Below, one piece after another: positions 28,891-31,821 of a DNA stretch of 64,000 bases (position 1 is the first letter of the stretch; each line of letters begins with the position of its first letter). The stretch comes from Alphaproteobacteria bacterium. Lineage in GTDB: Bacteria; Pseudomonadota; Alphaproteobacteria; Rs-D84. A program made the position numbers and the translations under genes. The notes beneath the pieces are model-generated. The model did not search any database, had not been told where the DNA came from, and saw only the letters and a program-made list of their open reading frames with translations. Location: the NCBI GenBank assembly GCA_024402765.1, contig JAKSTC010000001.1, forward strand, positions 133,785-197,784. Direction: 5' to 3'.

Positions 28891-29697
28891 TTAACAAACC
28901 TTTTCGCAATTTGCAGTTTCCTCAGCATTAAACTCTGGAACACGTGCCACTTCGGCAGGTTGTTCAAAGTATGTTTTTATATGACGATAAACATCTTCCA
29001 CAAAGCCCTTGCATTGTTCTGTATTTTCTGTCTGAACCGAAAATGTATTATCATTGTTTTTTCTAATTGATGCTATTGCCACATTGCCACCAATGTAAGC
29101 AGAAGAAACTTCAATTGCGTGGTCGACAGTCCAATAAGCCAGATTAACCGCATTAGCAACATTTGGTATAGAATCTATTTGTATAATCTTTTTTATTAAA
29201 TGAATCGAGGGCATACCATTTGTAAAACCAGAGCCAATAATTGTGTACCACATACCAGAAGATTGAATTGGTGATATCATAAGCCCTGTTATCTTATACA
29301 AATAAAATTCACCACAATGATAAAAACCTATTACTGATACAAATTGAATCTGTTGTAAAAAATCATTGTGTAATTTTTGTATTAATAACCCTTTTGTATG
29401 CTCTGGAACTTTTGTTATCATTAATTCGTTGATAAAGTTATAAAAACCTTTTGTTATATCAGAAATAATAGCATCCGCTGTTCTATCTGGAACATCAAAC
29501 TGAAAATCTTCAAATTTTAAATTCAAAAAATTTAAGAAAAAACGCAAATAATTATCTGCACCAGCACAACAACAAACTATTCTGTTTTTTACTATGTGTG
29601 TTTTCAAATTATCAACACCAACTTGGTCAACAGAACACATTCCGTCAGAAGCAATCACTACACCATCTCTGCATAAAACCCCAATACCAATAGTCAT
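28891..29697 (-). CDS. Proteasome beta/HslV-like Ntn-hydrolase fold protein (candidate toxin or effector)
   Basis: N-terminus M-TIGIGVLCRDGVVIASD, with Thr directly after Met, Asp at mature position 17 and Lys near 31. GSG motif in YTIIGSGFTNG. Lies 6 nt downstream of the Panacea gene. Confidence 0.6.
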   Translation of the reverse strand: MTIGIGVLCRDGVVIASDGMCSVDQVGVDNLKTHIVKNRIVCCCAGADNYLRFFLNFLNLKFEDFQFDVPDRTADAIISDITKGFYNFINELMITKVPEHTKGLLIQKLHNDFLQQIQFVSVIGFYHCGEFYLYKITGLMISPIQSSGMWYTIIGSGFTNGMPSIHLIKKIIQIDSIPNVANAVNLAYWTVDHAIEVSSAYIGGNVAIASIRKNNDNTFSVQTENTEQCKGFVEDVYRHIKTYFEQPAEVARVPEFNAEETANCEKVC

Positions 29698-29703
29698 ATA
29701 AAA

Positions 29704-30150
29704 TTACTCCTGAATCAAAACGCTATTAACTTTCATTTCAGGAAATTCGTCATAAATTGCGAAACACAATTCACGAAAACTCTTTTTTAAAACGAAAGGA
29801 ATTAATGTGCACTGAATATAATCTCTTTCTGCTTTTGTTAAAAAATTGGCTGTGTCAGCACGTTTAACAATTTTATAAAGTGATAAATTGTTGTGTTTTT
29901 CAATTTCCATTTTTTCGTCTTTTACCAATTCATTTATAACAGCTTTCAATTCTGAATCATATGGTCCATATAAATATGGTTGAAAATTGAAATACGTGCC
30001 GTTTTGTCCCAACCTTTTTTCAATCAAAAAAAACAATTTTTGCACCTTTATCGGTGACAAATAAGGATGGTCAGCCGGCAACAAACTAAAAACGTTTAAA
30101 ACAAATTCTTTTCTATCCATAGGTCTATTCTTTACTAAAATATTTACCAA
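29704..30150 (-). CDS. Panacea (DUF4065, SocA/GepA-like) domain protein, candidate antitoxin
   Basis: SPIKVQKLFFLIEKRLG...FQPYLYGPYDSEL matches the KLqKLlY...W.yGPv signature of the family. Confidence 0.65.
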   Translation of the reverse strand: MVNILVKNRPMDRKEFVLNVFSLLPADHPYLSPIKVQKLFFLIEKRLGQNGTYFNFQPYLYGPYDSELKAVINELVKDEKMEIEKHNNLSLYKIVKRADTANFLTKAERDYIQCTLIPFVLKKSFRELCFAIYDEFPEMKVNSVLIQE

Positions 30151-30254
30151 ACATTAATTATTATTGCAACAACAATATAATAAAAACAACGGTTTTGTAT
30201 GTTTGTATTATACCATAAAGCACCATAAAATGAAAGAAAAAACAACTTTCTATA

Positions 30255-30283
30255 TTGCAAAATGGCTTTTTCTGGCATATAAT
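30255..30283 (+). promoter_or_regulatory. Near-consensus sigma70 promoter
   Basis: TTGCAA (30255-30260), 17-nt spacer, TATAAT (30278-30283). Confidence 0.65.
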
Positions 30284-30289
30284 CATAAA

Positions 30290-30532
30290 CAGAGTCGTAA
30301 AACAATTCGGCTTCAGAATCCAAGAGATTGGGTTCGGGGCTATCTCAAGCCCAGTTCATTCGGTGCGAAAGCATCGTTAATCTGATGTGATGGTGTTTTT
30401 GCACCGTTATCATCCCTGACTTATGGTCGGGGGGCTGTTGGTTATAAAATACGGGAAACTGGAAAGCCAATGGAATCAATAATGAACTGATTTGAGAAGT
30501 CCCCGACCGCTCTTTCTTGGGCGGTCTTTTTA
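30290..30532 (+). promoter_or_regulatory. Roughly 240-nt structured leader with mutually exclusive antiterminator and terminator (riboswitch- or attenuator-like)
   Basis: CCCTGAC (30414-20) pairs with GTCGGGG (30426-32). GGTCGGGG (30425-32) pairs with CCCCGACC (30501-08). Terminator GACCGCTC (30505-12) pairs with GGGCGGTC (30519-26), followed by ttttta. The RBS aaaggag and the ATG at 30550 come directly after. Confidence 0.55.
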
Positions 30533-30549
30533 TACAAAGGAGCTCAAAA

Positions 30550-30894
30550 ATGTCAGAAAAAGTCAGTGTAAATCAACAAAGCAATAAAAAAGAAAGAAAT
30601 GTTATTATTTCAGGATATGCTTGGTGGCTAGTAGTCATTGGAGCATTGTTTTCTGGATGTCTTAATGGTTATGATATGCGTTTTGGTATTCAAAATGAAG
30701 ATATAATGTTTTGGTCAACAATTTTGATTGGTTTTATTATGGGCTTAATTCCCGTATGTTTGGCAACATTTCTTGAAAAGAAACATCGTGCATATATTTA
30801 TTGGCTTAGTTTCTTTTCTGTTTGGATGCCACTAGGTATATTTGTTTGGGCGATTGCTGTAATTTGGGCGATTTTTGATAAAAAACGTATATAA
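30550..30894 (+). CDS. Small multi-pass membrane protein
   Basis: Start at MSEKV behind the RBS aaaggag. Three hydrophobic segments (WWLVVIGALF, WSTILIGFIMGLIPVCLA, WMPLGIFVWAIAVIWAIF). Confidence 0.5.
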   Translation: MSEKVSVNQQSNKKERNVIISGYAWWLVVIGALFSGCLNGYDMRFGIQNEDIMFWSTILIGFIMGLIPVCLATFLEKKHRAYIYWLSFFSVWMPLGIFVWAIAVIWAIFDKKRI

Positions 30895-30904
30895 AGGATT
30901 AAAT

Positions 30905-31150
30905 ATGAAAAAAACATTAGTAATAATAACTGCTTGTTTGGTGCTATCTGCTTGTTCTCATACTCATATAACTGAAGATATAATAGGTTATAACGAAACA
31001 GGTAAAGCCTTGGTTAGAGTGTGTAAATCGTCCGGCATTGGTGCCAATGCTAAGGCATTTGGGTCATCGTGCTTAATTGAATTGAGAGATTATGGAAAAA
31101 TTTCTAATACAGCAAATACCATAAATGTGATTTCTAATGACGACAGATGA
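30905..31150 (+). CDS. Small lipoprotein
   Basis: MKKTLVIITACLVLSAC lipobox, RBS aaaggat. Confidence 0.5.
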   Translation: MKKTLVIITACLVLSACSHTHITEDIIGYNETGKALVRVCKSSGIGANAKAFGSSCLIELRDYGKISNTANTINVISNDDR

Positions 31151-31164
31151 AAAAGGATATAAAA

Positions 31165-31821
31165 ATGAAAAAAATAATATTTATAATTATATGCTGTCTA
31201 AGTGTTAATATTTGTCAGGCACAAACATTTAAATCTATGTCAGAACTAGAAGAAGGCTTTATGGCTTTATGTGCTATTGTTGTATTTTTTATAATACTGA
31301 TAATTATAGGTATTCAAAACAATTTACAACAAAAACCGCGTGCAGATAAACCTGTATCGCAACAAGTAAAATTACCTAAAAAAGCAGAGCACGGGGCTAT
31401 GTGGCGATTATTGTTGGGTGGAAGTGAACAGATACCAGAGTTTGATACGATAGTATGTTTTAATAGGGTTCTTGGAAAACCAACTTTGTTCGAATATGAT
31501 GGTGACCTGAATAAGATAAAGAATCTGGCAAACAACCACGGTTTATTAAACTGGCTATGTGATATACGTCAACAATGGTTTGGTCTATTAAAAAACACAA
31601 AAAACATCCCCGTATCAACAATGACATTTTTCTTGTTTGATGCAAAAGGTAACATTTTAGGAATGGCGGCATTGTGGGAAGAAAAAACTTTTGGTAGAGA
31701 CTTCACGCCTTTTAGAATTCCATTAGAGGTTATAAAAGATACTTCATACGATTATCAAAAACTGAAACAAATGTCAGAAAGAAACCGGAAAGCGTTTTTA
31801 GAGGTTGTTGGGGGCAAGTAG
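31165..31821 (+). CDS. Signal-peptide and TM-anchored hypothetical protein
   Basis: MKKIIFIIICCLSVNICQA signal, second TM FMALCAIVVFFIILIIIGI, soluble C-terminal domain. An alternative start exists at 31147. Confidence 0.45.
   Translation: MKKIIFIIICCLSVNICQAQTFKSMSELEEGFMALCAIVVFFIILIIIGIQNNLQQKPRADKPVSQQVKLPKKAEHGAMWRLLLGGSEQIPEFDTIVCFNRVLGKPTLFEYDGDLNKIKNLANNHGLLNWLCDIRQQWFGLLKNTKNIPVSTMTFFLFDAKGNILGMAALWEEKTFGRDFTPFRIPLEVIKDTSYDYQKLKQMSERNRKAFLEVVGGK

Follow-up and report, generated by a model that had tools for sequence, protein, structure and literature searches.

A c4/sRNA-Xcc1-like leader RNA as a candidate RNA-pairing-controlled termination switch in reduced-genome Alphaproteobacteria

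The 64,000-nucleotide (nt) window analysed here, a stretch of contig JAKSTC010000001.1 from an alphaproteobacterium of Rs-D84, an order of reduced-genome bacteria (PMC12306168), harbors a leader RNA of about 240 nt directly in front of three genes for membrane or secreted proteins. The leader is real, conserved and regulatory by design. It acts in cis, and its three alternative structures, an anti-P1 hairpin, the P1 helix of a three-way junction and an intrinsic terminator, are kept by covariation. For the mechanism the confidence is moderate: folding models point to a default-off termination switch, which would be controlled by RNA-RNA pairing and built from a c4-type antisense module, and a probability of roughly 0.55 is given to this reading. 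All coordinates are positions of the window on its forward strand, and all elements of the leader and its operon lie on the plus strand.

Conservation of the alternative pairings

A sequence-only reading of the window had proposed a strong promoter, a long leader, a chain of alternative pairings, a terminator and further upstream hairpins, and each of these was recovered position for position (Table 1). This holds for the promoter with its 17-nt spacer, for the complementarity of the two anti-P1 strands as well as of the two P1 strands, for the two upstream hairpins, and for the position of the terminator directly upstream of the ribosome-binding site and start codon of the three-gene operon. 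The terminator and the P1 3' strand overlap by 4 nt, the start of the former being the end of the latter, and the U-tract is present.

The chain is kept throughout the family of related leaders. The anti-P1 hairpin is found in 67 of 69 copies, and in 60 of the 69 the last four bases of the P1 3' strand form the beginning of a hairpin that has a U-tract behind it. Divergent copies change all three partner strands together, as in CTCCAAC / GGTTGGAG / CTCCAACC and in a second triple with matched changes, TCCCGAC / GGTCGGGA / TCCCGACC; where the P1 5' strand is altered (GGTTGGAG, GGTCGGGA and GCGGGGA variants), both of its partners are altered to match. Helices P1, P2 and P3 of the junction covary as well. 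In an alignment of 37 copies, 98.5% of the cells pair, compared with 31-56% in slid controls, and 18 of 20 junction pairs show double changes; this alignment is model-fitted and biased toward the structure, but P2 nonetheless has many independent pair types. Invariant unpaired nucleotides are UAUAAAA / GAAAG in P2 and AACU in J3/1.

The stability of the RNA also goes beyond chance. The 246-nt RNA folds at -104.6 kcal/mol, whereas dinucleotide shuffles reach -66.0 +/- 4.6 kcal/mol (z = -8.46; 0 of 200 shuffles equal), and its G+C content of 0.41-0.47 compares with 0.23-0.29 just upstream and 0.38 in the genome. Transcription would start at about 30289-30291, judging from the promoter. Promoter-like sites with at least 10 of 12 matches occur in 21 of 36 copies and in 4% of shuffles, at a fixed spacing to the first conserved hairpin, such that the -10 element mostly ends 23-28 nt before the Pa/Pb junction. 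The stem sequence of Pa varies yet stays paired across the five own-genome copies compared by eye. The hairpin P0 is limited to the window locus and its orthologue, stands outside the family core and is missing in most paralogues.

Address pairing within each leader

The junction carries two variable segments, here called addresses, b' in the P3 loop and a' in J3/1, which are complementary to b1 and a1 in the 5' domain of the leader. For 33 copies from many genomes, pairing energies were calculated with own and with permuted partners (20000 permutations). The P3 loop pairs with its own 5' domain at -10.0 kcal/mol compared with -6.0 kcal/mol for permuted partners (z = -13.8), and J3/1 at -5.65 compared with -3.96 kcal/mol (z = -9.5); for both, 0 of the 20000 permutations were as good. 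The two partner sites lie next to each other, in the order that was expected. The five own-genome copies compared by eye all have different but matching address pairs, and the exact 9-mer of b1 occurs in the genome only at its own site, plus its complement at b'.

The related genome G019 harbors 28 distinct P3 loops in 36 copies, and its own pairing amounts to -9.35 compared with -5.76 for cross pairing. Among the G019 copies listed, a shared P3 loop goes with differing J3/1, one duplicated pair excepted. The column entropy is 1.63 bits for the P3 loop, 0.28 bits for P1 and 0.07-0.45 bits for the P3 stem. The addresses are hypervariable inside a near-invariant scaffold.

A c4-style target at the downstream ribosome site was considered and rejected. 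Within the 110 nt downstream of P1 there is no preference for the own RNA in the 33 copies (z = 0.0 and -0.7), the same was found in G019, and in copies A and C the partial matches noticed by eye do not exceed chance. The Rs-D84/Enterousia-type leaders lack the a2/b2 pair which phage systems have at this site.

The orthologue of the window locus in another species (L016, G020:C14:124834-127933, leader at about 1501-1600 on the minus strand) shares the promoter, letter for letter, and the P0 hairpin with the window locus and is followed by a related gene. The leader of L016 is a chimera, with an a1 and b1 that do not match its own a' and b', and it may represent a natural unlocked variant.

Table 1. 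Elements of the leader RNA and of the operon behind it.
Feature	Position	Strand	Sequence or remark
Sigma-70-type promoter	30255..30283	+	TTGCAA 30255-30260, 17 nt, TATAAT 30278-30283; 10/12 match
P0, extra 5' hairpin	30292..30313	+	GAGUCG / CGGCUU; from folds
Pa hairpin	30316..30335	+	GAAUCCAA-GAGA-UUGGGUUC; corresponds in position to hairpin 1 of the c4-a1b1 motif
Pb hairpin	30337..30352	+	GGGCU-AUCUCA-AGCCC
Address site a1	30343-30348	+	UCUCAA, in Pb loop and 3' arm; partner J3/1
Address site b1	30352..30360	+	CAGUUCAUU, directly 3' of Pb; partner P3 loop
Pc, long hairpin	30361..30406	+	CGGTGC...GCACCG (DNA); UGC-GAAA-GCA sub-motif common to many copies
Anti-P1 hairpin	30414..30432	+	CCCUGAC 30414-30420 with GUCGGGG 30426-30432; 9-pair hairpin; sequesters P1 5' strand
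c4 / sRNA-Xcc1-like three-way junction	30425..30508	+	RF02221 alignment, covariation
P1 helix	30425-30432 with 30501-30508	+	GGTCGGGG / CCCCGACC (DNA); closes junction
P2 helix	30435-30441 with 30467-30473	+	internal loop UUAUAAAAUA / GAAAG, GAAA-capped tip
P3 helix	30474-30478 with 30488-30492	+	carries b' in loop
b', hypervariable address in P3 loop	30481..30489	+	AAUGAACUG, complementary to b1
a', variable address in J3/1	30492..30497	+	UUGAGA, complementary to a1
Intrinsic terminator (DNA)	30505-30512 / 30519-30526	+	GACCGCTC / GGGCGGTC, then TTTTT
Intrinsic terminator (RNA)	30505..30531	+	GACCGCUC-UUUCUU-GGGCGGUC, then UUUUU
Controlled operon	30537..31821	+	Shine-Dalgarno AAGGAG 30537-30542, ATG 30550; three orphan genes
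Membrane protein, 114 amino acids (aa)	30550-30894	+	list of open reading frames (ORFs)
Lipoprotein-like protein, 81 aa	30905-31150	+	ORF list
Signal/transmembrane (TM) protein, 224 aa	31147-31821	+	ORF list

Family assignment of the 3' domain

At gathering thresholds, the Rfam scan found only tRNAs in the window. A permissive scan aligned 30425-30516 to sRNA-Xcc1 (RF02221, model positions 1-87) with 41.2 bits and E = 5.8e-6, while the gathering threshold of this family is 53 bits; the other copies reach 30-44.5 bits, all under 53. The only other permissive hits in the window and the loci, namely GcvB, Spot 42 and Phe leader, are noise. No C4 or c4-a1b1 hit was obtained in the window at E <= 10 or in 20 loci at E <= 0.5, and the same scan detects both in phage P1 (68.8 and 51 bits). 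A blastn search of the leader against phages returned nothing, and the Xcc1 consensus gave one partial hit against plasmids.

The sequence-only reading had found no riboswitch class to match and had taken the leader for an orphan riboswitch or attenuator candidate. The former stands, as no Rfam riboswitch was hit, but the leader is not an orphan, being a sub-threshold relative of sRNA-Xcc1 with a c4 / c4-a1b1 architecture. As far as its sequence can tell, it is a re-wired branch of the c4 / Xcc1 class and not a new riboswitch class.

Folding energies and proposed mechanism

Nearest-neighbour folding, a model which cannot score pseudoknots, was used to compare the alternative states. In the growing transcript of the window copy the anti-P1 hairpin forms first, b1:b' follows once the P3 loop exists, then a1:a' forms together with a GGGG:CCCC extension, and the terminator comes last. 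P1 is never part of the minimum free energy (MFE) fold of this copy, and forcing it costs 21.5 kcal/mol. The terminator state lies below the P1 state in 59 of 60 copies, with a mean of 11.2 kcal/mol, and its nested, locked fold is the MFE structure in 47 of the 60. In the pre-terminator transcript, P1 is in the MFE structure of three of the 60 copies, among them the chimeric orthologue. Barring a1 and b1 from pairing in silico leads to P1 formation in 27 of the 60 copies. In this model, the self-lock, the anti-P1 hairpin and the terminator form together.

A default-off model with two locks is suggested, since the P1 state is disfavoured in the folds and masking of a1/b1 raises P1. Here, a constitutive-looking promoter would produce the leader, the 3' half of which would fold into the c4 / sRNA-Xcc1-like junction. 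Because P1 uses the first four bases of the terminator, junction and terminator would be mutually exclusive. The anti-P1 hairpin would capture the P1 5' strand as soon as it is transcribed, and b' and a' would bind b1 and a1 in the own 5' domain, which represents the self-lock. With the lock closed, the terminator would form and the three membrane/secreted genes would be off as the default state. If a1/b1 or a'/b' were occupied or unpaired, P1 could displace the anti-P1 strand and RNA polymerase would read through. The preferred opener would be an RNA with the same address, such as one processed from the locus itself in the manner of IsrK or the P4 CI RNA; alternatives would be a protein or growth-dependent RNA processing. 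Three points of this model are inferences, namely the assignment of the lock to the off state, the conditional nature of termination and the identity of the opener.

An extension of this mechanism would be a memory switch, in which rare read-through yields a processed, free c4-like RNA, which occupies a1/b1 on nascent leaders of its own locus, leaves their junction unblocked and sustains read-through. RNase P, for example, could release the RNA by a cut at the GGU with which P1 begins, and its two-part address would match its own locus only; as a result of the positive feedback, 10-50 orthogonal copies per cell would keep their surface-protein or accessory operons heritably on or off without any change in the DNA. 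Taken together, these steps are improbable.

Conditional termination had been put down in the sequence-only reading to a ligand, a protein, a tRNA or a translation event. The conserved alternative-pairing leader fits the conditional part. The evidence favours RNA-RNA pairing over a ligand, a tRNA or a leader peptide, because the variable loops pair with the own 5' domain, the architecture is that of c4, the cargo is mixed and no leader ORF is present. A ligand or protein cofactor is possible. Two classical attenuators were considered and rejected. For a leader-peptide attenuator, no ORF with a ribosome site starts inside the leader transcript according to the ORF list; the only plus-strand ORFs of at least 40 aa, at 30164-30385 and 30255-30380, begin upstream of the inferred transcript start, and no short ORF is conserved among the paralogues by eye. 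A T-box had no match in the permissive Rfam scan.

Alternative readings

Several observations weigh against an RNA-opened, default-off switch. Masking of a1/b1 frees P1 in no more than 27 of the 60 folded copies. A 7-bp loop helix on an intact P3 is geometrically possible, so that address pairing might belong to the on state. The invariant internal loop of P2 could be a site for a ligand or a protein. No trigger was found: within this genome, exact matches to b1 of copies A, C and D are confined to the respective leaders, and orphan 5' domains are absent. On these findings, the idea that the genome encodes targets in trans or separate 'key' RNAs was rejected. The kinship to C4/c4-a1b1 is architectural and has no covariance-model link, phage P1 c4 reaching 6 bits under the family's own model. 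An RCCA tail after P1, which would be expected for RNase P, is common in some genomes, but in G019 it is mostly GCAU.

An opposite wiring is unlikely. Here, a1:a' and b1:b' would be tertiary contacts which dock the 5' domain on the intact junction and stabilise P1 for read-through, and the anti-P1 hairpin and the terminator would arise when docking fails or is outcompeted. The covarying part of b1:b' in the window copy comprises 7 of the 9 loop nt and leaves about 2 nt on the 5' side, a classic H-type pseudoknot geometry; b' of phage P1 pairs from an 11-nt loop, for which P3 need not open; and the conserved GAAA loop of Pc and the P2 internal loop could make a tetraloop-receptor contact. However, the complementarity of many copies extends into the 3' arm of P3, and the 5-nt loop of copy L012 would need to form an 8-bp helix. 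Furthermore, a1 fills nearly the whole 6-nt loop of Pb plus one stem base, so Pb must open, and the nested locked fold is, as stated, the most stable one in most copies. None of these three counterpoints is decisive.

A true riboswitch, in which a small molecule or ion at the junction or the P2 loop stabilises P1 and blocks termination while the addresses are merely structural, appears improbable. The layout is a classic one, with an aptamer P1 overlapping the terminator and a competing upstream strand, P2 and J3/1 have invariant unpaired nucleotides, and the expression platforms are modular, with a terminator here and an anti-Shine-Dalgarno strand in the distant copy L084 described below. Also the high copy numbers would fit, as c-di-GMP-I riboswitches reach high copy numbers in some genomes. 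Against this stand the absence of any matching Rfam riboswitch class, the heterogeneous cargo without a metabolic theme, copy-specific hypervariable addresses, which are untypical of riboswitches, and a ligand-free state about 11 kcal/mol under the P1 state, which is a large gap for a ligand. In addition, the same P2 loop is present in phage sRNA-Xcc1 members which carry complete antisense target sets at ribosome sites. Still somewhat less probable is a stand-alone, trans-acting small RNA (sRNA) with a constitutive terminator, which would have its targets elsewhere and stand before genes incidentally. The unit indeed carries a promoter and a terminator of its own, c4 functions as an RNA released by processing (PMC5320573), and sRNA-Xcc1 was first published as a trans-acting sRNA according to sources citing Chen et al. 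(2011). But the b1 sequences of the three copies named above are confined to their own leaders, targets are not enriched at the downstream ribosome site, a start codon about 15-25 nt behind the terminator in most copies leaves no room for a promoter, and the conserved anti-P1 hairpin would have no role in a plain sRNA.

Copies, distribution and host

The own assembly comprises 0.92 Mb with 38% G+C and is 94.8% complete. By its AspRS, the organism belongs to the uncultured gut Alphaproteobacteria, close to Candidatus Enterousia; the protein is 85-88% identical to that of several metagenome-assembled genomes (MAGs) and 76% identical to that of a Candidatus Enterousia sp. MAG. Besides the window copy, the own genome has family copies on contigs C12, C18, C8 and C20 as well as at C1:132.2 kb, which makes at least six in total. 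Relatives were searched with a covariance model derived from the 3' modules of four copies. Of 61 related genomes, 47 contain the motif, and a genome of about 1 Mb can hold as many as 49 copies (G019; 25 in G058 and 20 in G013). At the level of the class, the motif occurs sporadically, in 8 of 201 sampled genomes, six other families having 1-3 copies.

In G019, the distance from the leader to a contig end is within about 36-400 nt in at least six cases (C3, C4, C6, C13, C22 and C32; loci L077-L081 and L070). The conserved leader probably breaks assemblies, and copy numbers in fragmented MAGs may therefore be undercounts.

Some copies differ in their anatomy. A strongly diverged one (L007, C1:132242-132316) lies about 1.5 kb before the start of the window; its P1 is GGUUGGAGG / CCUCCAACC, and it has its own anti-P1 strand and terminator and a gene for a signal-peptide protein behind it. 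In copy B (L002 / L011, G000:C12), P1 is not followed by a terminator with a U-tract; the stretch from the leader to the next gene, at about 92.43-92.53 kb, contains two near-identical GGUGGCGUA...GCGCCACC hairpins, and a similar hairpin is found behind copy L013.

A family member from another alphaproteobacterial family (L084, G148:C1:533273-536376; 1501-1604 plus flanks; 1.9-Mb genome) has no terminator. The 5' strand of its anti-P1 hairpin, CUCCUCG, is complementary to a CGAGGAG ribosome site 10 nt after P1. From this complementarity, L084 would represent a translational output stage on the same P1 decision, acting by sequestration of the ribosome site; such a swapped output stage is expected of a modular switch.

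Downstream genes and genomic surroundings

The three genes of the operon have no Pfam, PHROG or PADLOC match, except for a weak LPAM_1 (lipobox) hit. In most copies the downstream ORF starts 36-50 nt after P1, with the start codon about 15-25 nt past the terminator; because the start codon is so close behind the leader, the downstream genes would have no promoter of their own. These ORFs mostly begin with signal-peptide, TM or lipobox sequences, and a GT2, a helix-turn-helix protein and others also occur. Across the copies the cargo is heterogeneous, comprising secreted, membrane and accessory proteins, without a common metabolic pathway.

Divergent from the leader promoter, the minus strand of the window (28891-30150) carries a Panacea/DUF4065-like gene (PADLOC PDC-M19A, DarG-like hits, phrog_14939) beside a gene for a proteasome-like Ntn-hydrolase. 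About 1.3 kb downstream of the controlled operon, the segment 33166-35472 encodes a large serine recombinase of 537 aa, which has Resolvase, Recombinase and Zn-ribbon domains, and behind it a small resolvase/invertase. Leader and cargo are probably part of an integrative island. At L017, L025, L027 and L034, the leader has a tRNA gene no more than a few hundred bases away, which suggests that some leader-plus-cargo units are located at the edges of tRNA-integrated islands. The nearby serine recombinases had also prompted the idea of a retron, an insertion sequence or a bridge RNA; it was rejected, as no reverse transcriptase or transposase adjoins the leader and the copies precede unrelated genes.

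Implications

In the Rs-D84/Enterousia-type leaders, a device known from phages appears to have lost its downstream target, gained an anti-P1 strand and a terminator overlapping P1, and multiplied to as many as 49 copies in a genome of about 1 Mb. Most copies carry their own two-part address, and the genes behind the leaders encode secreted, membrane and accessory proteins. Should the switch prove real, organisms with very few classical regulators would have in it a major layer of gene control, and it would provide a natural library of orthogonal RNA-RNA switches. The proposal of Citron and Schuster (1990) that a1/b1 compete for c4, as quoted in PMC2864571, would then become testable. If the memory reading were true, a phage immunity device would have given rise to a counterpart of phase variation at the RNA level.

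Comparison with known systems

The architecture is closest to that of C4 and c4-a1b1 (RF01695 and RF03163, clan CL00128) from phages P1 and P7. The annotated order in immI of phage P1 is promoter, two hairpins, an IsrK-type terminator, the c4 RNA and a2/b2 before icd. Here, a1 (TTGACAG) lies in the loop of the second hairpin and b1 (GTTAGTGC) just 3' of it, and the c4 RNA consists of P1, a UUCG-capped P2 and a P3 with b' in its loop, with a' in J3/1. The leaders share the two 5' hairpins with a1 and b1 in these places as well as the three-way junction, the P2 of which is capped by a tetraloop; b' and a' again occupy the P3 loop and J3/1, respectively, and the whole module lies on one transcript ahead of the regulated genes. 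Their P1 begins with GGU, as at the 5' processing site of c4. In contrast to C4, the leaders have no a2/b2 at the downstream ribosome site, add an anti-P1 hairpin and a P1-overlapping terminator as a rule, have a conserved internal loop in P2, and occur as tens of chromosomal copies before surface-protein genes, whereas C4 serves one antirepressor operon. P1 stems of C4 have been described to overlap terminators sometimes, with a possible role in cis (Weinberg et al., 2010; PMC2864571 supplement).

sRNA-Xcc1 (RF02221), found in Xanthomonas integron cassettes, APSE, Aaphi23 and Stx-type phages, is the sole Rfam family matching the 3' domain. Its P1, P2 and P3 are arranged as in the leaders, its P2 with capped tip contains the same conserved AUA(C/A)AA...GAA internal loop, and it likewise stands upstream of a gene (symE, ORF6N or ant). 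A search with the Rfam consensus yields members in Aaphi23, Stx-type and other phages; that of Aaphi23 scores 86.1 bits and that of P13374 79.6 bits. In Aaphi23, the RNA is located directly ahead of ant. Upstream of it, UCGAAA lies in a hairpin loop and CAAACAG just 3' of this hairpin, followed by a terminator and the junction, which has CUGUUUG in its loop and UUUCGAA in J3/1. Both UCGAAA and CAAACAG are repeated downstream, the latter extending into the GGAG of ant. P13374 displays the same layout with CUCAAAA and GCAAGUAG. Judged by these complementarities, sRNA-Xcc1 appears to follow the target logic of c4 in the two phages, with a1b1 and in addition a2b2 at the ribosome site. The two phage members differ from the family leaders by the IsrK-like terminator between a1b1 and the junction and by a2/b2 over the ribosome site; the leaders have at the former place the non-terminating hairpin Pc, which lacks a U-tract, possess no a2/b2, and have their terminator overlapping P1. 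In the literature searched, sRNA-Xcc1 is placed upstream of a symE or ORF6N gene with no mechanism given, and no paper attributes the c4 target logic to it. To our knowledge, it has been an Rfam family without a worked-out mechanism since 2010; the target logic seen in the two phages now gives it a mechanistic frame.

In P13374 (L045, HE664024.1 11787-14252, reversed), a separate IsrK and C4 module lies about 0.9 kb upstream of sRNA-Xcc1. The coding sequence annotated as 'antB2 antirepressor' in this phage (147 nt; 1151-1297) lies almost wholly on the sRNA-Xcc1 RNA (1186-1269) and is probably a mis-annotation.

An experimental precedent for a lock in cis which is opened in trans is IsrK of the isrK-orf45-anrP locus in Salmonella Gifsy-1 (PMC4825925), and Rfam isrK overlaps the a1b1 region of phage P1. 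Here, a segment further downstream in the read-through transcript is bound in cis by a part of IsrK, its a1b1-type region, which gives the inactive structure A; the terminated, short RNA can then bring the long form into structure B by action in trans (PMC4825925). Unlike the leaders with their P1-overlapping terminator, IsrK controls the translation of orf45/anrP and is present at a single prophage locus. For the immunity of P4, the summary in PMC4825925 describes that pairing of the CI RNA with seqA and seqC leads to termination. By this description, a processed RNA derived from the leader pairs up- and downstream on the same class of transcript and causes premature termination, a likeness drawn from the description only. 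P4 differs in having one locus with a downstream seqC, while the leaders have only upstream sites and their pairing is possibly purely intramolecular.

A chromosomal counterpart is known from Acinetobacter baumannii, where the Group 1 sRNAs comprise 21 c4-type copies with a conserved scaffold and a variable a' loop and are apparently processed at GGW, the 5' end of P1 (PMC5320573). In contrast to the leaders, they reach the Rfam C4 model and are described without a terminator-switch anatomy or matched upstream addresses. Both groups, however, have in common a chromosomal expansion on a fixed scaffold, and the P1 of the leaders starts with a matching GGU.

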